A stretch of 64,000 nucleotides of DNA from Shigella phage Moonfish. The position numbers and the translations under genes are program-made. Within the stretch, counting starts at the first letter, position 1; each line of letters opens with the position of its first letter. The stretch is from the sequence record PQ613263; one strand, 5' to 3'. The notes beneath the pieces were generated by a model. The model was given only the letters and a program-made list of their open reading frames with translations. It did not search any database and was not told the DNA's origin. Positions 975-20,600 of this stretch are shown here, one piece after another.

Positions 975-978
975 TCAA

Positions 979-1006
979 AGCCCCCGTAGTTGGGGGCTTT
1001 TTTGTT
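979..1006 (+). terminator. Rho-independent terminator
   Basis: GC hairpin aagcccccgtagttgggggctt followed by a T-run, directly after the stop at 974. Confidence 0.6.
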
Positions 1007-1075: not shown

Positions 1076-1408
1076 ATGGGAAATGAACCAGATAACGTAA
1101 CTCTAGCCAGACTCGAAGAGAGACTGAGAAACATTTTCGAAAACCAAACTCGTGAATCGAGGGAAAGGGAGAAAATGGAAGAGTCTATTAAAAAACTAAG
1201 TGAATCTATGGGTGACCTTAGTACCCGACTTAAACGGGTAGAAGAGAGTATCACTAAGTCTGAACCTACTATCGAAGAGTTCATCACCATCAAACATAAA
1301 GTTGTTGGTGCTGGAATCTTTGGTAAGTGGGTATGGGCTGGAGCAGGTGTAATCATTGGTGTATTGGCTGCTGCACGTCGGGAGATATTTACATGGTTCG
1401 CAAGCTAA
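1076..1408 (+). CDS. Hypothetical membrane-anchored protein (coiled-coil N-terminus, C-terminal TM segment)
   Basis: 110-aa ORF; C-terminal hydrophobic stretch VVGAGIFGKWVWAGAGVIIGVLAAA. Confidence 0.4.
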   Translation: MGNEPDNVTLARLEERLRNIFENQTRESREREKMEESIKKLSESMGDLSTRLKRVEESITKSEPTIEEFITIKHKVVGAGIFGKWVWAGAGVIIGVLAAARREIFTWFAS

Positions 1409-1515
1409 AAGGTAAAGTGGGGATTCATCCCCACTGGAAGTTCTCATGGAAGAAATTGGACTTACAGATAAGTTCATTTCTTCTGATACTATTCACTGGC
1501 ATTGATGTACTACAG

Positions 1516-1653
1516 ATGTCCTTCTCTGGATTACCTAAGCACCTTCTTGAATTGGTTCCATATGGTAATACTGTTGCATTAGCACTGTTTGGTCTTAATG
1601 TAGTAGGGCGTCTCTTTGTTCTTAAGAAGAAGGATAAGTCTCATGAAAGCTAA
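1516..1653 (+). CDS. Small one-TM protein, candidate holin/pinholin
   Basis: In-frame ATG inside track ORF 1327..1653; TM segment LVPYGNTVALALFGLNVVGRLFVL then a Lys-rich tail; directly upstream of the endolysin. Confidence 0.25.
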   Translation: MSFSGLPKHLLELVPYGNTVALALFGLNVVGRLFVLKKKDKSHES

Positions 1654-2278
1654 GCAGAAACTTGCTGCCAAAGGTGGTGCAGTGGGAGGAGTAGTCGCTG
1701 CTATTCTGGGGGCAGTGTTCTACATGGAAGGGGGGTATGTAAATAATCCTCGTGACCCAGGTGGGGAAACTAATCATGGTATTACTCATTCAGTTGCTAA
1801 AACACACAAAGAAGTACTGGCAACTGAATATGGTTGGGATGGTTCCATGAAGGGTCTGTCTAAAGAGATGGCTGCTGAGATATACATTGATGATTACGTA
1901 CTTAAACCTAACTTCGTAGCCTTCGCTGATATATCTCCTGCTGTAACACACAAACTGGTTGATGCTGGTGTTAACACTGGTGTATCTCGTCCGGCTAAGT
2001 GGTTGCAGTTATCCCTTAATGAAATGTCCCGTGATGGCAAAGACTACCCTAAAGTACAAGTTGATGGTAAAGTCGGTGTAGGTACTGTTAATGCATATAA
2101 AGCATTACAGAAAAAACGAGGCAAAGTTGCAGCGTGTCAGGTAATAATCAAGTTGCTTGATGCTAAACAACTGAACCACTATACCTCACTAAACATGCCA
2201 GACTTTACGTATGGTTGGGTAGCTAACCGAATAGGCAATGTGCCACTGGAGGCATGTAATGAAGATGCTAATCTCTAA
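1616..2278 (+). CDS. Endolysin, GH108-type N-acetylmuramidase with N-terminal signal-anchor (SAR-like)
   Basis: Motif EGGYVNNPRDPGGETNHGIT matches the GH108 signature; N-terminal hydrophobic GGAVGGVVAAILGAVFY; C-terminal peptidoglycan-binding-like region. Confidence 0.6.
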   Translation: MFLRRRISLMKAKQKLAAKGGAVGGVVAAILGAVFYMEGGYVNNPRDPGGETNHGITHSVAKTHKEVLATEYGWDGSMKGLSKEMAAEIYIDDYVLKPNFVAFADISPAVTHKLVDAGVNTGVSRPAKWLQLSLNEMSRDGKDYPKVQVDGKVGVGTVNAYKALQKKRGKVAACQVIIKLLDAKQLNHYTSLNMPDFTYGWVANRIGNVPLEACNEDANL

Positions 2279-2759
2279 AGGTTGGCCTTATCTTCTGGTG
2301 GTGGTCCTCGGGGCCACCATTTACTTTTGGGGTAATTCCAACGGACAGTCTACTGTTCAAAAGAAGTGGGATGACCAAAAGGTCGAAGACCTGAAGGCAA
2401 CACAAAAATTACAGGACAAATACAATGCTCTCCAAAGAAACCATAGTTATGAAGTTGGGTTACTCACTTCCCGGTTGCAGACGGCTGAAAGTAATTACGC
2501 AAGCGAGCTTGCTCGCGTTAGCAGTGATTACGATAGCCGGATGCAACAGTCTGAAAGACGAGCATCGGTATATAAACGTCAAGTCGAAGCCGGAACCCTT
2601 GAGTGCAGAAGTCTTGCAAGCCATGCAGCCAGACTCGACAATAGTCTTGAAGAGGGCAGACGTTTGGTTGAAGAACTCCGGGCAACTGTTAGACTCCGTG
2701 ACAACCAACTAATTGAGTTGGGTAAACAAATTCAGGCTGACCGTAAACTTTTTGAATAG
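2238..2759 (+). CDS. i-spanin (Rz-like)
   Basis: N-terminal TM ([16 protein letters not shown]) followed by coiled-coil-rich periplasmic domain; immediately after the endolysin. Confidence 0.5.
2449..2712 (+). CDS. o-spanin (Rz1-like lipoprotein) embedded in the i-spanin gene in another frame
   Basis: ORF wholly inside 2238..2759; lipoprotein signal with lipobox LAVITIAGC; Pro-rich mature part. Confidence 0.5.
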   Translation: MKLGYSLPGCRRLKVITQASLLALAVITIAGCNSLKDEHRYINVKSKPEPLSAEVLQAMQPDSTIVLKRADVWLKNSGQLLDSVTTN

Positions 2760-2767
2760 GAATAACT

Positions 2768-5038
2768 ATGGAACACCAAGATACTATGAAGCCGTTACCA
2801 GACCCGGCTCAATCGGATAAGCTGACAGACTGGAAGAAGGAACCAAGCATCCAACTACTAAAGGGTGACTTGGAATCAGCCAAGCCTGCTCATGATGCCA
2901 TCATGTCCCAGATTCGTGAGTGGAATGACTTGATGGAAATCAAGGGTAAGGCTAAACCCCCAAAGGTTAAGGGACGATCACAAGTCCAACCTAGACTGGT
3001 TCGCCGTCAGGCAGAGTGGCGATATGCACCATTGTCTGAACCATTCCTCTCATCCAGTAAACTCTTTAAACTAACTCCGGTTACTTTTGAAGATGAGTTA
3101 GCTGCTCGACAGAATGAGTTAGTTCTTAATTACCAATTCCGTACACAGCTTAACAAAGTGAAGCTAGTGGATGATTACGTACACAGTGTTGTAGATGATG
3201 GTACTGGTATCGCTCGTATTGGGTGGGAACGTAAGACCGTTAAGATTAAAACAGAAACCCCAGTATTCCAGCTGTATCCAATTGAGAACCAGGAACAGGC
3301 AGATGTTCTTCAACAGGCTTTACAACTTCAAGAAGAAAACCCTCGTGAATATGATGAAACAATGCCAGAGGATATTAAGGAATCTGTTAACTACTTCAAC
3401 GAAACTGGAGAAGCTACTTATGCAATCCAGACTGGGGTTACAGAGGTAGAGGTAGAGAAAGCACTGGTTAACAGACCTACCGTTGAAATGCTTAATCCTA
3501 ATAACGTAGTTATTGACCCAAGCTGTAATGGTGATTTGGATAAGGCTCTGTATGCGGTTATCTCTTTTGAGACATGCAAAGCAGACCTCATGAAGAATAA
3601 GGACCGTTATCACAATTTAGATAAGATTGACTGGGAAAGCTCCAGCCCTATGACTGACCCAGACCATGAGAGTAAAACCCCTAGCGACTTCCAGTTCAAG
3701 GATTCGCTCCGTAAGAAAGTAATTGCTTATGAGTACTGGGGATTTTACGACATCAACGATGATGGTTCACTGGAACCAATTGTTGCTACCTGGATTGGTT
3801 CTACTCTTATCCGTATGGAGAAGAACCCATTCCCGGATGGTAAGTTACCTCTGGTAGTTGTTCCATACATGCCCCGTAAACGTGAACTCTATGGTGAAGC
3901 TGATGCTGAACTGTTGGGAGATAACCAAGCTATTCTTGGTGCAACTATGCGTGGGATGATTGACCTGTTAGGCCGAAGTGCTAATGGACAACGTGGTTAT
4001 CCTAAGGGGATGTTGGATACCCTGAACCGTCGTCGATATGACGATGGTCAAGACTACGAATATAACCCAATGCAGGGTAATCCTAGTCAGGCCATTATGG
4101 AACATAAGTTCCCTGAGTTACCTCAGTCGGCAATAGTAATGACCCAGATGCAAAACCAGGAAGCGGAATCATTAACTGGGGTTAAAGCATTCTCTGGTGG
4201 TGTAACTGGTTCAGCTTATGGAGACGTAGCTGCCGGTATACGTGGTGCACTGGATGCAGCATCCAAACGTGAGATGGCAATCCTTCGTCGATTAGCTAAG
4301 GGTATGGCAGACATTGGTACTAAGATATGTGCAATGAATGCTGTGTTCTTATCTGAGAAGGAAGTAGTACGTATTACCAATGAACAGTATGTAGAGATTA
4401 ACCGAGAAGACCTTAAAGGTAACTTCGACATTGAGGTTGACATTAACACTGCTGAAATTGATAACCAGAAATCCCAGGACTTGGGCTTCATGGTTCAAAC
4501 GTTAGGTAACACAGTTGACCAGTCTATTACGTTATCTCTTGTAGCTAAGATTGCGGAACTTAAACGTATGCCTGACCTTGCACATGAGTTACGTACTTGG
4601 CAACCACAGCCTGACCCCTTGGACGAACAGCTTAAGCAATTGGCAATTCAGAAAGCACAGCTTGAGAATGAAGAGCTGCAAAGTAAGATTGCACTCAATA
4701 TGGCTAAAGCTAAAGAGGCTGCTTCTAGTGGTGACCTTAAAGACCTGGATTATCTGGAACAGGAATCTGGTACTAAACATGCTCGTGATATGGAAAAACA
4801 AAAAGCACAATCTCAAGGAAACCAGAACCTTCAGATAACTAAGGCATTGACAACACCTACCAAAGAAGGTGAAACTACCCCCAACATATCTGCTGCTGTT
4901 GGATATAACACTTTGACTAACGGGAACTCTCCACAAGAACGTGACCTAGCTGCTCAGCAAGACCCGGCTTATTCACTTGGTTCCCAATACTATGACCCTA
5001 GCCAAGACCCAGCATCGGCTCTTGGCATGAACTTGTAA
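2768..5038 (+). CDS. Portal protein (N4 gp59-like)
   Basis: 756-aa ORF upstream of head genes; size and position match the N4-type portal; low-complexity acidic C-terminus. Confidence 0.5.
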
Positions 5039-14631: not shown

Positions 14632-17600
14632 TTGAACAGGAAACATGCTATGTCAACATTTGACCGTCTGGCAGGTTTCGCAGACAGCATCACTAATGCC
14701 AAGCAAGTCGATGTCTCTACTGCAACCTCTCAGAAGCAAGCTGCACAAGGGCAAAGCCCTTTCCAATTAACCCCAGAGAATGCTTACAATCTCCAGACTG
14801 GACGTGTAGGTAATCTTGGAACTGGTGCATTCGAACCAGGTTCACTTCAGGCTGACTTCACTCAAGCCTCCCCATTAGAAATCATTAATAAGTACGGTAA
14901 TGAGAAAGGTTTACAGATTCTTAATAGCCGAGCTAATGCTGCTGATGTTGTACGTCAGGACTTATCTAAACAGCGTACTAACGCAGAAGCATTTGGCGAT
15001 ACTCTTTCTGGTGTTGGTCTTGGTGTTGCTAATACCCTTGGGGGCATTGCTGCTCTTGGCACAGGTCTGGTCAATGATAATGCCGGGGCATCCATTGCTT
15101 CCGGGATGGATTGGCTGAATGAAGGTGTACGCAATCTCCAGTCTGATGCACTGAATGCTACCCGTAAAGTTGTTCAGAATCAGAACCAGATTTCTGCTCA
15201 AAAGAACCAGAAACTTTACGAGCAAGATATTAAGAATGGGGAGAACGATTTGGTTGCCTCCCTGTCTCGCATTGGTCGTGACGCTTTTGATTCTGTTGCT
15301 AATACACTTGATAATGGTATGGCTGCTACCGATGGACTGAGCGAAGGTGTTGGTTCCCTCTTTACTGCTGGTCCACTTATCCGTGGTGTGTCTGCATTAG
15401 GTAAAGTAATGGTTGGTGGTGATAAAGCTGTTAGGGGTATTACCTTAGCTGCTGAGTTGGGTTCACGTCCTGCACAGGTTGCACTGTCTGCTGGTCGCGT
15501 TGCTGCACCTGCTATTGCAATCGGTGGCATGGAAGCAGGTGGTGCATACCAACAGACTGCATCTGAAATCATGAAGATGTCCCACCAAGAATTGGCAAGT
15601 AAGTCTCCTGTTTACCAACAACATATTGCTGATGGTTTACCTCCTGATGAAGCACGTCGTCAGACTGCATCTGAAACAGGTATCACTGCTGCTGGCTTAA
15701 CTGCTCCAGTTGCTGCTGCTACTGGTCCACTGGTATCTCGCTTTGAACTTAACCCACTTAGAGTAGGTTCACTGGCTGGTGCTGGTTCTAATATGTTACG
15801 TGAGACTGTAGAAGAAGGTATTCAATCCGGCTTTGGTCAGTTCGCACAGAATACTGCAATCAAGGAAAATGTTGATGCATCCCGTGACACCCTCAAAGGG
15901 GTCGGTGAGCAAGCAGGGCTTGGTGCACTCTACGGCTTCGGTAGTGCTGGAGTTGCTCAAGCTCCTGGTGCAACTGTTAAAGCTGCTGGTGCTGCCACTG
16001 CTCCTGTTGTACGTACTACCCTGGCTGGTGCTTCTCTGGTTGGTAATGCATTAGCTAAAGCTGCTTCCCCTATTACTAACATTCTGGTTCAACGTGGTGA
16101 AGAAGTTGCTAAGCGTAATGAACAAGCATCCCCTGTAGCTGATGCTACGGTTAATGCTGCTGCACAAGAAGCTACTGCTCAGGCAGAACAAGCACAAGCG
16201 ACTGTACAGGAAGCAGTAGATGCAATGGATATCTCTCCTGAGGAGAAGGCTGCTGCTACTCAGTATGCTGCTGACTTAACTCAGGCAATGAACTTTGACC
16301 CTGTAGAATTGGAACAAGCTAACCCGGTAATTCGTGAAGCTGTTTCTGGTTCCACTAACCGTGTTGAAGCTATTCAGAAGATGGCTGACTTGGTTAATAC
16401 AGCAGAAGACCCTAACGTTCAAATGGAAGCTGCTATCCAGATGTATGACAACATCATGTCTATGGATAGCTTCATTAACCGTGACCCAGGTGCACTGGCT
16501 AATCTGGAACAGGGTTCACCTGCTGCTACAATCGTAGACCAGTTCTCTGGTCTGATGGCTAACGTACAGAATACACCGAAGGTACTTCGTGCATTCCGTG
16601 CTATCCATTCCATGATTCAGGAACAGGCTGAAGCAGGTAAGCTGAAAGCTACTGAAGAAGCTAACCAAGCTCAAGCAAACAACATTGCCATGGCTGCTGA
16701 CGTGTCTCCAGAAGTATTGGATGCAGATTCAGTGAACATGGTTCTGAAACATGCAAGTGAAGGTAAGATTACACTGGGGAATCGTCAACGTGCTGCCCTG
16801 CAATCTGCTGCTGCCTTGTTACAGGGTGCACGAGAGTTTGACGCTAAAGCAGAAGAACTAGGCTTACGTCCTCAAGACATTGTTAGTAAACAAATTAAAA
16901 CCGACGAGTCTCGTTCTAACGAAGGACAGTACTCTGCGTTGCAACATGCGAAACGCATTCGTTCTGCGTATAACTCTGGTAACTTCGATTTGGCTTACGC
17001 TTATCTGAGCGACTTTATGAAGTTCGCCCAGCACATGCAGAATAAGGTCGGAGCGTTGAATGAGCATCTGATTTCTGGGAATGCGGATAAGAATAAGTCT
17101 GTTCATTATCAGGCTCTCTCGCCTTCCCGTGAATGGGTACGTAGTCGTACTGGCCTCGGTGTCAATCCTTACGATACCAAGTCTGTTAAGTTTGCCCAGC
17201 AAGTAGGACTGGAGGCCAAAACCGTAGCTGATATTGCTAACGCACTTGCTACGGCTTACCCGGAGCTTAATGTTTCTCATGTGAAAGTTACCTCGTTGGA
17301 TTCACGTCTGAACAAGCCAGCTGCCCAGGTAGTTAAAGAGTTCCGTCAAGGTGGTCTTGATGCCACTCAGTCTCAACAGACCAATGAACCAGTGAATCAG
17401 GTTGATGAATCTCCTGCACCAGTGCAAGAGGACACTACTACTGTACAGCCTAAAGCTAAACCTGTGGTAGAAAATAAGACTGCTCCTACTAAGGAGACTA
17501 GCCCAAAAACAGAAGAAGTCTCTACTACCAAGTCTGAAACAGTAGAAGCTACCCTCACTAATGAGGATACCATCCAGGAAGTAGCTGAAACCAAAACAGA

Positions 17601-20600
17601 AATGGAAACAGTGTTCCCCGTCTATAACAATGAAAAGACACCGAACCAGTTCCTGAAAGCATTTACCCTACCAGAAGAACCTAAGTCTCGTACCATTGGT
17701 TCTGAGTCTCCGTTGACTGATGTTAAGCAAGCACTGTCTTCTGTTGCTCGCTTTGAAGCATTCACTCAAAAAGAAAATAACGCTCTCACAGGTGATGTGA
17801 TTAAGCGTTATCAGGACTTAATGGACTTTGGTGAAACTCTGAAGACTACTTTGTCTGAACGACTGGCTAAGTTCCTTGCTAACAAAAATGTCGGTAAACG
17901 TTTTGCAGAAGGTACGGAAGCTAACCGTTGGGTAGGTGGCAAACTACTGAATATCGTTGAACAAGATGGTGACACCTTTAAGTTCAATGACCAGTTGTTA
18001 GAGACTGCTGTGCTTGCTGGTCTGCAATGGCGACTAACTGCTACACAGAATGCTGCTGTTAAAGACATGAAAGACGTAGCTGCTATTACGGGTGTAGAAG
18101 CATCTCTGTTACCAGAAGGTATTCTGGCTGAGTTCGAGAATGCTCAGACTCTGGTTGAAGCTACTAACTCACTGGCTCAGAAGATCGAATCCTACTGGGG
18201 TTTGAACCGTAACCCTAATGCACCACTGGGTTATACCAAGGGTATCCCAATGGCAATGGCTACAGAGATTCTGTCTTCCCTCATTGAGATGGGTGAAGTT
18301 AAAGAGTCTATGCTGGATGTGTCTGAGATTGACCCAGATTCCAATAAGACTGTCGGCCTGTATACCATTGAGAAGCTGGATGACAATGATGCCATTAACA
18401 AATTCCCTACTGCTATTGAGGAAGCTGTCCTCTTAGAACCAGAAGAGAAAATGTATTTCGGTGACGACATTCCTTCCGTGGCTCAAACTCAATTACGTAA
18501 TCCTGCTGTTAAGAATACCCCGGAACAGAAAGCTGCTCTGAAAGTAGAACAGGCTACTGAGTTCCGTGTACACATGCCGATGGTTAACTTCTATGAAGCT
18601 ATGGGCCGTGACAACATACTGGAATTGATGGGTGCTGGTTCTCTTAATCCTGAACTGTTGAACGTGAACACTGCTAAGTCACTGGAGGGTAAAAACCTGT
18701 CCGTGTCCATGGCATATGATTCCTTGTTTGGTGTAATCAATCAGATTAAGGAACAGGAGAATGGACTAGATACACCTATCCACTATGGCTACAACATGAC
18801 CCGTGTAGGTCGTATGCAGATGCTTGGTAAGAACAACCCACAGTCCAGCAAACTGGTACGTGAAGCAATCCTGCCAACCTTCTCTACTATTGACTTGAGT
18901 AATGAAAACAGCCAAACGTTCTCTGACTTCCAGTTAGGTCTGGCTCAGGCATTGGGTATCAAGGTTCATAATATGTCCCGTGAAGCTATGTCTGAAAAGC
19001 TGACCAAAGCTTTGGAAGGTAATCTGAAACCTGCTGTTGATATGATGGTTGAGTTTGATAAGTCTGGTCACTTACCTGCTGATGCAGTTGATATTCTGAA
19101 GACATCTCTGGGTGGCGATAAATCATTCGTAGCTCTCATGGCTCTTATGGAATATGCCCGTTACCTGAACAGTGATGACCGTGCCAACTTTAATACCCCT
19201 CTGTACGTTGAAGCCGATGGTGTAACCAACGGTCCGATTAACGCAATGGTATTAATGACTGGTGGTAAGTTCACTCCAGACTGGATTAAGAATACTGCTA
19301 AAGGTGGTTTGTTCTTCGGTAAAGCTGGTAAGACTATGAACGAACATCGTTCACAGGATGACAGTGTTGACTTGTATGAAGCATCCACCAATGGTCTGCA
19401 ACAAGCATTGGGTGAATTGCGTAGTACTTACCGTAACAACGTTCCTGTTATGAGCCAGATGAACCATCTCCAGAAGTTAATGGACCTGTTCATCAAAGAC
19501 TTTAACTTGAATGAAGACGGTACTTTGGACCTGAAACGTGGTATCGCTAAAAACCCACTGACTATTACCATCTATGGTTCTGGTGCACGTGGTATTGCTG
19601 GCAAGATGGTTAGTGCAATTACTGACACCATCTATGAACGCTTCAGTGACGTTCTGCAAGCACGTGCTGCTGACCCTAGCATTTCCCCAGCTATGGCGAT
19701 GTTTGGTAAGGAGGCTGCGTCTGAGGCTGATGCTCAGGCTATGCTGGATACTTTCCTTACTTCTATGGAAGCACTGACTGGTAATGTTCCAGTTATGCGT
19801 AAAGGCGAACTGTCTATTCAACAGGCAGAAGGTGCTCTGACTGGTAAGTTAGACCCTCAGAAGTTTACTGTATCTGGTAATGCCTTGAAGAACCTACAAG
19901 AGAACATGCTTCACTTGTTCGTTGAACCAATGCGTACAGGTATCCGTAATACTGTTGGTGAAGGTCTGATGCACTCTACTGAGAACTTGCAGAAGGCTAC
20001 TCAGATTCAGTCTCTGGTATTGCAGGATATGTTCCAACAAGCAGTACAGGCTAAACTGGCAGAAAAAGAAAATGACCCAACGTGGAAGAAGGGTGATTTC
20101 TTAACACAGAAAGAACTGAATGAAATTCAGGAATCATTATCTCCACTGGCTCCAATGATTGAGACTGGCGCACAGACTTTCTACATTGCTGGCAGTGAGA
20201 ATACTGATGTTGCTAACCAAGTACTGGCTACCAACTTAGATGACCGTATGCGTGTGCCAATGAGCATCTATGCCCCGTCACAAGCAGGTGTTGCTGGTAT
20301 TCCATTTATGACCATCGGTACTGGTGATGGCATGATGATGCAGACCCTTTCTACTATGAAAGGTGCTCCGAAGAATACCCTGAAAATCTTTGATGGCATG
20401 AACATTGGTATCAATGACATCACTGATGCAAGCCGTAAAGCTAATGAGGCTGTATACACTTCCTGGCAGGGTAACCCTATCAAGAATGTTTATGACTCCT
20501 TCGCTAAGTTCATGAAGAATGTAGACTTCAGTAAACTGTCTGATGAAACCAAACAGGCTATCGCTAAGTCTGCTCTGGAATACGACCAGCGTGAAGGTGC

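Follow-up and report, generated by a model that had tools for sequence, protein, structure and literature searches.

The region between positions 1076 and 2759 of the window, by which we mean the whole 64,000-nt stretch of Shigella phage Moonfish (sequence record PQ613263) that was analyzed, very probably constitutes a complete N4-type lysis cassette, located in a Gamaleyavirus (G7C-like Schitoviridae) genome and expected to work like that of N4. The original prediction of a lysis cassette at this location was upheld, the five genes being collinear and homologous with N4 gp63-gp62-gp61-gp60/gp60a. Gene models, domains and motifs, topology features, orthology, synteny, and dual-frame selection were computed here, with topology calls resting on hydropathy, charge, and motif rules; the functional roles of all five genes are transferred from N4 experiments at 46 to 67% identity, the main functional source being a 2025 preprint (Awuah et al., bioRxiv 10.1101/2025.11.12.688109).

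Gene content and genomic setting of the cassette

The features considered in this study are the following.

977..1000, plus strand: intrinsic-terminator-like hairpin (10-bp stem, 6 GC pairs) followed by the T-run TTTGTTGT
1076..2759, plus strand: lysis cassette of five genes
1076..1408, plus strand: gp63-like tail-anchored membrane protein, 110 aa, candidate pinholin (phrog_5211, E=1.2e-48)
1393..1653, plus strand: gp62-like protein with two transmembrane domains (TMDs), 86 aa (phrog_1356 "holin," E=2e-16)
1643..2278, plus strand: GH108 N-acetylmuramidase endolysin, 211 aa (PF05838, PF09374, N4 gp61 orthology)
2259..2759, plus strand: i-spanin (Rz-like, N4 gp60 family), 166 aa (phrog_6197 "Rz-like spanin," E=1.9e-76)
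2449..2712, plus strand: o-spanin (Rz1-like, N4 gp60a family), nested within the i-spanin gene (+1 frame)

The cassette is flanked by a tailspike gene upstream and by the portal gene downstream, the i-spanin gene being its last member and lying immediately upstream of the portal gene. The order tail fibre-gp63-gp62-gp61-gp60(+60a)-portal is common to N4 and to eight more Schitoviridae (six host genera). In particular, Moonfish and N4 share the same five genes, with the same order, orientation, overlaps, and flanking tail and portal genes, and the encoded proteins are 60%, 46%, 67%, and 55% identical to gp63, gp62, gp61, and gp60, respectively. Furthermore, an N4 hallmark is found in the Moonfish genome as an open reading frame (ORF) of 3,456 aa at the place expected for the virion RNA polymerase. 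The two phages differ in genus (Gamaleyavirus for Moonfish and Enquatrovirus for N4) and in that the Moonfish gp62 is far more divergent than its other four genes.

The cassette region shares 89 to 94% DNA identity with G7C-like phages, whose annotations for it read holin, endolysin, Rz-like spanin, and o-spanin. In the Escherichia phages vB_EcoP_G7C (HQ259105, gp63-gp60') and Bas96 (PQ850623), DNA identity amounts to 89 to 90% over the whole region, the gp63, endolysin, and i-spanin proteins are 95 to 98% identical to those of Moonfish (98% for the i-spanin), and the gene boundaries are identical, including those of the embedded o-spanin; different from Moonfish, however, are gp62 (52 to 53% protein identity and 57% DNA identity) and the upstream tailspike, which is unrelated. 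As a system, the cassette is already known, since G7C (2011) and Bas96 annotate five genes including the embedded o-spanin.

At 977..1000, the hairpin terminates the tailspike gene upstream and delimits the cassette on its 5' side. Similarity to G7C-like genomes begins at about position 993, and 5' of this boundary the match is instead the tailspike of Shigella phage SFN6B. A scan of positions 1000 to 1075 revealed no sigma-70 consensus promoter upstream of the cassette, and the best candidate found by hand is weak (TTGTAC and TAGACT, 18 nt apart, with 7 of 12 matches). ORFs on the minus strand of this region (e.g., 1072-1356 and 1196-1477) are unsupported and were taken as shadows of the plus-strand genes.

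Endolysin and spanins

The protein encoded at 1643-2278 contains the GH108 domain (PF05838, E=1.8e-19, 70.5 bits against a cutoff of 21.2), followed at the C terminus by the PG_binding_3 domain (PF09374, E=1.6e-6, 28.6 bits against a cutoff of 24.6). The catalytic motif reads E29GGYVNNPRDPGGETNHGIT, in which an alignment of 50 sequences shows E29, G30, G31, D38, P39, G40, G41, T43, and G46 to be invariant. Sequence searches of the PDB returned Sen1395 (6V3Z, 1.2e-26) and TtsA (6V40, 7.5e-20), and the AlphaFold model (pLDDT 92.6, with a helix over residues 12 to 29) presents a fold that matches those of TtsA, Sen1395, SagA, and NMB1012. Foldseek retrieved TtsA and Sen1395 with a probability of 1.00, and the matches to 6V40, 6V3Z, 7DNP, and 2IKB had E-values from 2.5e-9 to 1e-4 and TM-scores of 0.6 to 0.8. 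These bacterial GH108 muramidases, some of which are used for type 10 secretion, share with the phage enzyme the two-domain fold and the EGGY...DxGGxTxxG motif (sequence E-values of 1e-26 to 1e-11), and Glu29 aligns with the Glu of TtsA that is named catalytic E14 in the TtsA paper, with an inferred numbering offset. However, the bacterial proteins are devoid of the hydrophobic N-terminal extension of the phage enzyme, and helix 1, amphipathic in these proteins (DEIFAAILSRE), corresponds to AAILGAVFYME in the phage enzyme.

The original prediction had placed this gene at 1616..2278, with a GH108 motif and a hydrophobic N terminus. The motif and the segment were found, whereas the start was revised: although the ORF is open from TTG 1616, translation almost certainly begins at ATG 1643, as deduced from an AAGGA Shine-Dalgarno sequence 8 nt upstream of it, from the length of 211 aa shared with the annotated orthologues in G7C and Bas96, and from the block of high identity with relatives, which begins at about position 1650. 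The N terminus thus defined (MKAKQKLAAK) carries a charge of +4 over its first 10 residues and precedes an uncharged stretch of 18 residues, GGAVGGVVAAILGAVFYM, with 50% Gly and Ala and a mean Kyte-Doolittle value of 1.87, so that the signal-arrest-release (SAR)-type segment (residues 1 to 28) directly adjoins the catalytic EGGY motif, as it does in N4. The stretch is kept in all 12 phage orthologues and in about 100 of 102 database homologues, and the SAR-type segment that had been predicted, with its basic start and its weakly hydrophobic, Gly/Ala-rich stretch, is therefore both present and conserved.

By orthology with N4 gp61, the founding member of the GH108 family, the product of 1643-2278 is a predicted SAR endolysin with muramidase activity. 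N4 gp61 is membrane associated, works together with the pinholin, and gives slow holin-independent lysis, and single acidic substitutions in its SAR segment (G12E) lead to rapid lysis (bioRxiv 10.1101/2025.11.12.688109); the residue equivalent to G12 in Moonfish is the conserved Gly15. Muramidase activity of gp61 was shown by Stojkovic and Rothman-Denes (2007), as related in the same preprint. The holin independence contained in the original prediction holds for export only, because in N4 the gp63 pinholin is needed for the SAR enzyme to be released and activated in synchrony. Moreover, residues 19 to 28 of the Moonfish enzyme, the C-terminal half of the SAR segment, align with the first helix of soluble TtsA and Sen1395, which indicates that they are part of the folded enzyme. 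In light of this homology, there is a modest possibility that membrane insertion of the SAR segment could unfold part of the catalytic domain and that release would complete the active site around Glu29, thus acting as a GH108-specific latch.

The i-spanin is composed of an N-terminal TMD (residues 8 to 25) and a periplasmic helical domain of 141 aa, with a single Cys (C116). Its ORF opens with ATG 2238, which is less likely to be the start because the orthologues begin with MKM or ML. The o-spanin ORF is open from 2395 and stops at 2712, with candidate starts at ATG 2449 and, alternatively, at ATG 2425, neither of which is preceded by a strong Shine-Dalgarno sequence. The lipobox I-A-G-C, which confirms the IAGC of the original prediction, has its Cys codon at 2542-2544 and leaves a mature part of 56 aa; the signal peptide and the lipobox were called by regular-expression and hydropathy rules. 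The residue at position +2 is Asn rather than Asp, on the basis of which the lipoprotein is predicted to sort to the outer membrane. The interval 2449-2712 corresponds to the o-spanin genes annotated in Bas96 (264 nt) and G7C (gp60'), and its mature product closely resembles N4 gp60a, whose mature length is also 56 aa (bioRxiv 10.1101/2025.11.12.688109). Different from N4, where a leader of 16 aa is possible, the Moonfish leader is predicted to have 31 aa, because no Met occurs close to the lipobox.

In family searches, the o-spanin gave a marginal PHROG match and no Pfam match. Among 20,000 shuffles of the synonymous codons of Rz, a +1 ORF of at least 87 codons arose in 10% and one of at least 60 codons with a lipobox at residues 10 to 45 in 0.9%; ORF length by itself is therefore nonsignificant, and we relied on comparative evidence. 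In all 13 Schitoviridae cassettes compared, an embedded +1 ORF with a hydrophobic leader, a lipobox, the Cys, and a conserved mature peptide of 56 to 63 aa is retained, even though i-spanin identity to Moonfish falls as low as about 37 to 41%. Furthermore, in relatives with about 45 to 57% Rz identity (N4, VLCpiP4b, inbricus, Axy10, HN01, and Fifi287), the same codon is kept at identical Rz residues in 70 to 80% of cases inside the overlap versus 32 to 53% outside it, the difference being smaller for the most distant relatives. We regard this comparison of related sequences as decisive in indicating that the embedded o-spanin frame is under selection, with synonymous change suppressed in the overlap. 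As the N4 gp60/gp60a pair complements lambda Rz/Rz1 amber mutants (bioRxiv 10.1101/2025.11.12.688109), the Moonfish pair would represent two-component spanins, for which complex formation and outer membrane disruption may be assumed from N4. The spanin survey PMC6139136 does not mention N4 or G7C in its main text.

The two small membrane proteins

The original prediction had proposed both ORFs upstream of the endolysin as holin or pinholin candidates, and both proved to be genuine membrane proteins, of which orthology singles out the 110-aa one as the pinholin. This gp63-like protein (1076-1408) consists of a charged helical N-terminal domain, a conserved segment, SEPTIEEFITIKHK (the "Receiver"), and a C-terminal Gly/Ala-rich TMD (residues 85 to 100, 50% Gly and Ala). 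Compared with N4 gp63, there is almost no change over residues 63 to 110, which comprise the Receiver and the TMD; T65 and T71, at which mutations lead to faster lysis in N4, are kept (bioRxiv 10.1101/2025.11.12.688109). Basic residues occur on both sides of the TMD (KHK before it and RR after it), which makes its orientation ambiguous to predictors, an ambiguity likewise noted for gp63 in the N4 preprint (bioRxiv 10.1101/2025.11.12.688109). The N4 protein can substitute for a defective S21 pinholin but not for a defective lambda S, and its gene can be deleted only if suppressor mutations are present in the SAR domain (bioRxiv 10.1101/2025.11.12.688109); by orthology, the 110-aa protein of Moonfish is thus a probable pinholin.

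In many GenBank records, the 110-aa protein is labelled "tail length tape-measure protein." Its Pfam matches (CLZ, DUF1515, and leucine zippers) are weak, all below cutoff, and reflect coiled-coil composition, and we consider the label an annotation artefact due to this composition. A tape-measure identity is ruled out by the C-terminal TMD and by the place of the gene inside a lysis cassette.

The gp62-like protein (1393-1653) is preceded by a GGGAG Shine-Dalgarno sequence 8 nt upstream of its start, and its gene overlaps the start of the endolysin gene. Hydrophobic segments at about residues 26 to 44 and 61 to 77, together with charges of +6 at the N terminus, 0 in the loop, and +2 at the C terminus, suggest an N-in/C-in topology of the class II holin type. 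No Pfam holin family matched, and the sole Pfam match, DUF7940, reached 20.1 bits (cutoff, 27), compared to 50 to 54 bits for gp62 of N4 and Bas96. In N4, gp62 can be deleted, no rapid-lysis mutants mapped to it among more than 60 isolates, and it failed to make up for holin defects in the usual span of time; it shows late lethality that can be triggered by CCCP, and it is able to release soluble as well as SAR endolysins (bioRxiv 10.1101/2025.11.12.688109). By analogy, the Moonfish protein would be a lysis regulator or an auxiliary holin, nonessential for lysis. This role is the least secure of the five because the protein is so divergent (46% identity to N4, below the DUF7940 cutoff).

This sharply bounded divergent allele is the sole unusual point of the cassette. 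Its core (1409-1642) shows 55 to 58% nucleotide identity to G7C-like genomes, whereas the flanks have 92% or more and the change is abrupt at about positions 1409 and 1643, and the protein shares only 52 to 53% of its residues with gp62 of G7C and Bas96, where the flanking genes reach 95 to 98%. The best match among 50,697 phage records has 53.5% amino acid identity, and metagenomic relatives reach 74 to 94%. The type of gp62 allele did not covary in any consistent way with the residues of the gp63 TMD. It is possible to speculate, although we consider it rather improbable, that gp62 is an exchangeable allele cassette of a lineage unseen in cultured phages and that, provided gp62 sets the moment at which the SAR endolysin is freed, its swap alters lysis timing or lysis inhibition compared to G7C; if so, natural gp62 alleles would offer a handle on the regulatory function of gp62.

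A longer gp62 isoform (106 to 108 aa, starting at GTG 1327 or ATG 1333) was considered and rejected, as it is not conserved: the extension is open in 9 of 14 sequences (7 of 12 cultured phages and both metagenomic contigs) and closed by stops in Moo19, VLCpiP4b, Fifi287, Pokken, and Ebordelon. Because the extension overlaps the conserved gp63 TMD in another reading frame, its preservation needs no further explanation. Such a form would mimic the 109-aa form of N4 and its lambda-S-like dual start.

Alternative readings, known systems, and proposed mechanism

Compared with N4, the two small membrane proteins could have exchanged roles, with the gp62-like protein acting as the holin or pinholin and the 110-aa protein as an antiholin, a regulator, or a tape-measure protein. 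PHROG 1356 is annotated as "holin," the curators of Pokken labelled the gp62 homologue a class II holin, two TMDs with both termini inside are the classical S21/class II topology, and N4 gp62 has the late, CCCP-triggerable lethality and the ability to release SAR and soluble endolysins described above; to these points can be added the tape-measure label of so many records. Nevertheless, it is N4 gp63 that complements the S21 defect and whose loss requires SAR-domain suppressors, whereas gp62 is deletable and yielded no rapid-lysis mutants. Moreover, the TMD and Receiver of the gp63-like protein are far more conserved than gp62, and a C-terminal TMD and a gene located among lysis genes are incompatible with a tape-measure role, so we judge the reversal unlikely and retain the 110-aa protein as the candidate pinholin.

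A still smaller probability can be assigned to a cleavable Sec signal peptide or a permanent anchor at the endolysin N terminus in place of a SAR segment, with lysis timed otherwise. Cleavable signal peptides are known from some phage endolysins, signal peptidase I might in principle make use of the small residues G23 and A24, and the cases cannot be separated by sequence alone. However, the hydrophobic stretch meets the invariant Glu29 without a polar c-region, so that cleavage would fall within 5 residues of the active site, in a portion (residues 19 to 28) that aligns with helix 1 of soluble TtsA and Sen1395. The 50% Gly/Ala composition and the length of 17 to 18 residues, conserved in all orthologues, as well as the membrane association of N4 gp61, its work with the pinholin, and the rapid lysis caused by acidic substitutions in its segment, also argue for the SAR endolysin. 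Hardly any weight is left for the embedded +1 ORF being an unexpressed by-product of i-spanin composition, with the Rz-like protein acting alone or outer membrane disruption being unneeded. The 10% of Rz shuffles with an ORF of this length, the lack of a strong Shine-Dalgarno sequence at ATG 2449 or 2425, and the marginal PHROG and absent Pfam matches would agree with it, but not the retention of leader, lipobox, Cys, and mature peptide in 13 of 13 relatives despite the low i-spanin identity, the markedly higher codon retention inside the overlap, or the complementation of the lambda Rz/Rz1 double defect by N4 gp60 and gp60a.

Retaining the assignments made by orthology with N4, where experiments identified a pinholin, a regulator of lysis that acts late as a holin, a SAR endolysin, and a working two-component spanin pair (bioRxiv 10.1101/2025.11.12.688109), we propose the following course of lysis. 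The host Sec system would export the GH108 muramidase through its weakly hydrophobic N-terminal SAR segment, and the enzyme would build up inactive, tethered at the periplasmic face of the inner membrane, with Glu29 adjoining the membrane segment. The gp63-like protein would meanwhile accumulate in the inner membrane and, at a programmed time, form small lethal pinholes that collapse the membrane potential; upon depolarization, the SAR segment would exit the bilayer, and the freed enzyme would degrade the peptidoglycan around the whole cell. The inner membrane i-spanin and the outer membrane lipoprotein o-spanin would form a periplasm-spanning complex, which would disrupt the outer membrane after the loss of the wall. 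The two-TMD gp62-like protein may intervene as an accessory regulator or a slow holin, dispensable for lysis.

This arrangement resembles that of phage 21 (S21/R21/Rz-Rz1) and P1 Lyz in the Sec-exported, tethered endolysin, its release by depolarization, and the small-hole holin, features that we infer for Moonfish, and it shares with lambda and phage 21 the two-component spanins with an o-spanin embedded in the +1 frame. However, the Moonfish enzyme belongs to GH108 and does not have the T4-lysozyme-type (GH24) fold of its counterparts in phage 21 and P1. In addition, the candidate pinholin has a single, C-terminally anchored TMD with a cytoplasmic domain of 74 residues, different from the two TMDs of the S21 type. 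No sequence relation to S21 or R21 was found: no Pfam holin family scores, and PDB sequence matches are to GH108 only. Lysis inhibition is seen in N4 and reported to be absent in G7C, which suggests that regulation may differ even with the same parts.

As a discovery, the cassette carries little weight, being a canonical N4-like lysis module that has been annotated since 2011 (G7C) and dissected in N4. Its value lies rather in annotation, in that the 110-aa gene mislabelled "tail length tape-measure protein" would be named as the pinholin orthologue, the gene labelled "holin" as a probable accessory regulator, and the embedded o-spanin called wherever it is unannotated. Taken together, these comparisons show that the regulatory parts of the module are mosaic (gp62 with its divergent allele, gp63 with its variable N-terminal domain) and its executing parts fixed (the SAR enzyme, the pinholin TMD, and the spanins), and this regulatory mosaicism could guide work on lysis timing and phage yield.

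Organization and relatives of the lysis cassette

Five tightly packed plus-strand genes are located between a tailspike ORF and the portal gene, and for the cassette that they form, we could establish the gene models together with their motifs, topology features, and orthologues, as well as selection on both overlapping frames. Neighboring cassette genes overlap by 11 to 20 nt; such overlaps are usual in translationally coupled phage cassettes.

Features of the cassette and its flanks
9-974: tailspike ORF, followed by a terminator-like hairpin (977-1000)
1076-1408, plus strand: gp63-like protein, 110 aa; charged helical N-terminal domain and C-terminal Gly/Ala-rich hydrophobic segment WVWAGAGVIIGVLAAA (residues 85-100)
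1393-1653, plus strand: gp62-like protein, 86 aa; two hydrophobic segments, N terminus +6, C terminus +2
1643-2278, plus strand: GH108 enzyme, 211 aa
2259-2759, plus strand: putative i-spanin, 166 aa; N-terminal TMD and helical periplasmic domain of 141 residues
2449-2712, +1 frame of 2259-2759: putative o-spanin, 87 aa; hydrophobic leader, alternative start ATG 2425
2768-5038: portal gene (Pfam SU10_portal, E=2.6e-150)

The cassette region is 89 to 94% identical in DNA to G7C-like coliphages (Gamaleyavirus, Schitoviridae), with 92 phage records matching, and a 3,456-aa ORF (14632-25002) fits the giant virion RNA polymerase by which N4-like phages are defined. The N4 genes gp63-gp62-gp61-gp60 are collinear with the cassette (protein identities of 60%, 46%, 67%, and 55%, respectively), and the same gene order occurs between tail-fiber and portal genes in eight more distant Schitoviridae. 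Every feature that can be tested by sequence places the cassette in the N4 lysis-cassette family. The record of G7C, deposited in 2011, already lists gp63, gp62 as "putative holin," gp61 as "N-acetylmuramidase," and gp60 and gp60' as "Rz/Rz1 spanin, embedded," and the five genes are annotated equivalently in Bas96 and Mimir124. Being annotated in near-identical phages and experimentally characterized in N4, the cassette as described holds no novelty. Its operating logic is like that of phage 21 (pinholin, SAR endolysin, embedded spanin), but the phage 21 enzyme is a GH24 protein, non-homologous to the GH108 enzyme found here, and the phage 21 pinholin has two TMDs, in contrast to the non-homologous, tail-anchored single-TMD protein of the cassette.

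Misannotation of the cassette genes in public records is widespread. Many entries in GenBank and UniRef give the 110-aa gp63 homologue the name "tail length tape-measure protein," one Klebsiella phage record calls the i-spanin "RIIA lysis inhibitor," and most records leave the embedded o-spanin without annotation.

Upstream of the cassette, positions 1-984 of the window hold the 3' portion of the tailspike gene along with its terminator. They match the tailspike of the podophage SFN6B of Shigella (43 kb) with 95.1% identity but have no match among Gamaleyavirus records; G7C-like homology resumes at about 993. This pattern suggests that a receptor-binding module was swapped, the breakpoint lying at the terminator. 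Elsewhere in the window, ARAGORN detected one tRNA gene (26817-26895, minus strand), a tRNA-Ile whose anticodon, AAT, is unusual.

Endolysin and embedded o-spanin

The GH108 assignment of the endolysin is solid, and Pfam scores, solved homologues, and the structural model agree with the motif noticed in the original prediction. Both PF05838 (70.5 bits) and PF09374 (28.6 bits) exceed the curated cutoffs, the sequence matches the solved GH108 enzymes Sen1395 (E=1e-26) and TtsA (E=8e-20), and the AlphaFold model (mean pLDDT, 92.6) matches TtsA, Sen1395, SagA, and NMB1012. The start had been placed at TTG 1616; we favor ATG 1643, since it is preceded at 8 nt by an AAGGA Shine-Dalgarno sequence, the resulting 211 aa are the length of all annotated orthologues, and high identity to relatives begins in this region.

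The protein opens with MKAKQKLAAK, followed by 18 uncharged residues (50% Gly plus Ala) that directly adjoin the invariant catalytic motif E29-G-G-Y, an arrangement common to 12 of 12 phage orthologues compared and to about 100 of 102 database homologues with the EGGY motif. Composition, catalytic-motif junction, and conservation are in agreement with the proposed SAR-type hydrophobic segment, which shows SAR-domain features at the sequence level. Furthermore, the enzyme, when embedded in the membrane, probably withholds part of its catalytic domain, because the first helix of soluble TtsA and Sen1395, which is amphipathic, aligns with residues 19 to 28, and the AlphaFold model features a single continuous helix (residues 12 to 29) ending at the catalytic Glu.

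In N4, gp61 is a membrane-associated N-acetylmuramidase that functions with a pinholin as well as with a large-hole holin and lyses slowly without a holin, and acidic substitutions in its N-terminal segment, e.g., G12E, lead to rapid lysis (Awuah et al., bioRxiv 10.1101/2025.11.12.688109). It follows that N4 gp61 is a SAR endolysin; the equivalent of its G12 is here the conserved Gly15. The suggested holin independence would hold for export only, and not for timing.

As for the embedded o-spanin, 10% of synonymous shuffles of Rz yield a +1 ORF equally long or longer, and the length of the ORF is by itself not significant. The lipobox I-A-G-C (Cys codon at 2542) is followed by Asn at position +2, and the mature peptide counts 56 residues. 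All 13 Schitoviridae cassettes compared keep the +1 ORF, including its leader, lipobox, Cys, and conserved mature peptide; the hosts of these phages are Escherichia, Shigella, Klebsiella, Achromobacter, Burkholderia, Erwinia, Stenotrophomonas, Pseudomonas, and Xanthomonas. In relatives with about 45 to 57% Rz identity, identical Rz residues retain the same codon in 70 to 80% of cases within the overlap versus 32 to 53% outside it, the difference being smaller in the most distant relatives; we read this as a sign that a second reading frame is under selection. Conservation and codon retention thus uphold the earlier proposal of an o-spanin nested in another frame of the i-spanin gene. The N4 counterparts gp60/gp60a fully complement lambda Rz/Rz1 (bioRxiv 10.1101/2025.11.12.688109).

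Small membrane proteins and the proposed order of lysis

In complementation, N4 gp63 makes up for a defective phage 21 pinholin but not for a defective lambda S; it is lethal upon CCCP triggering and conditionally essential (bioRxiv 10.1101/2025.11.12.688109), and is therefore a pinholin. Its T65 and T71, which N4 genetics singled out, are conserved here inside the invariant segment SEPTIEEFITIKHK, and orthology points to the single-TMD protein (1076-1408) as the pinholin. The two-TMD gp62-like protein, which PHROGs (phrog_1356) and GenBank label "holin" and whose topology is that of a class II holin, would by orthology not be the pinholin, and it showed no membership in a characterized holin family. 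Its N4 orthologue is dispensable, has late, slow holin-like activity without timing-holin behavior, and was named a lysis regulator (bioRxiv 10.1101/2025.11.12.688109). Of the two holin or pinholin candidates put forward originally, only the first would then stand as a pinholin.

All functional roles in the cassette are inferred from N4. The muramidase would be exported by Sec to an inactive pool tethered to the inner membrane; triggering of the 110-aa tail-anchored protein would depolarize the membrane, whereupon the SAR segment would leave the bilayer and the enzyme degrade the wall. Lastly, the spanin complex would disrupt the outer membrane.

Allelic variation of the gp63-like and gp62-like genes

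In G7C-like genomes, at least three allele types exist for the N-terminal cytoplasmic domain of gp63 (window 1076-1300; loci L003, L005, and L010-L013 among those compared), beginning with MGNEPDNV, MSDESTSV, and MNESGELL, while residues ~62 to 110 are nearly invariant across them. The gp63 N-terminal domain is mosaic, with the gp63 TMD, SAR enzyme, and spanins conserved. No co-variation between gp63 and gp62 allele types was seen among the G7C-like genomes compared.

A longer gp62 isoform of 106 to 108 aa (GTG 1327 or ATG 1333), which would resemble the 109-aa form of N4 gp62 with its proposed dual start, was rejected: the 22-codon extension (1327-1392) is open in 9 of 14 sequences examined, with stop codons in the other five, and it runs across the conserved gp63 TMD in a different frame. 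A terminator scan also flagged two GC-rich inverted repeats within coding sequence, one (2297-2321, GGTGGTGGTCCtcgGGGCCACCATT) in the TMD-coding part of the i-spanin gene and one (1417-1434, GTGGGGAttcaTCCCCAC) directly downstream of the gp62-like start; protein-level preservation of the latter is absent in the more distant gp62 alleles P0005 and P0006.

In gp63, gp61, and Rz, the DNA is at least 92% identical to that of G7C-like genomes; at ~1409-1642, identity drops to 52 to 58%, recovering on either side within one 60-nt window. Correspondingly, protein identities to Bas96/G7C are 96/95% for both gp63 and gp61 and 98/98% for Rz, against 53/52% for gp62, and nothing above 53.5% amino-acid identity to the gp62-like protein was found among 50,697 phage genome records. 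It scores 20.1 bits with Pfam DUF7940, under the cutoff, compared to 50 to 54 bits for N4 and Bas96 gp62. G7C gp62, like that of N4, passes this cutoff. In G7C, N4's lysis inhibition is reported to be absent. The relatives of the gp62-like protein are seven metagenomic proteins, each of 86 aa and 74 to 94% identical, in the same cassette context. In particular, both gp63 and gp62 are 94% identical in contig L025, and the N4-like contig L023 (70.7 kb) shows a uniform 73 to 88% identity over the cassette. From these sequence comparisons we conclude that a second gp62 allele lineage circulates in uncultured G7C-like phages and that recombination has put this allele into a cassette that is G7C-like in all else. 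The divergent gp62 allele adds one minor novelty.
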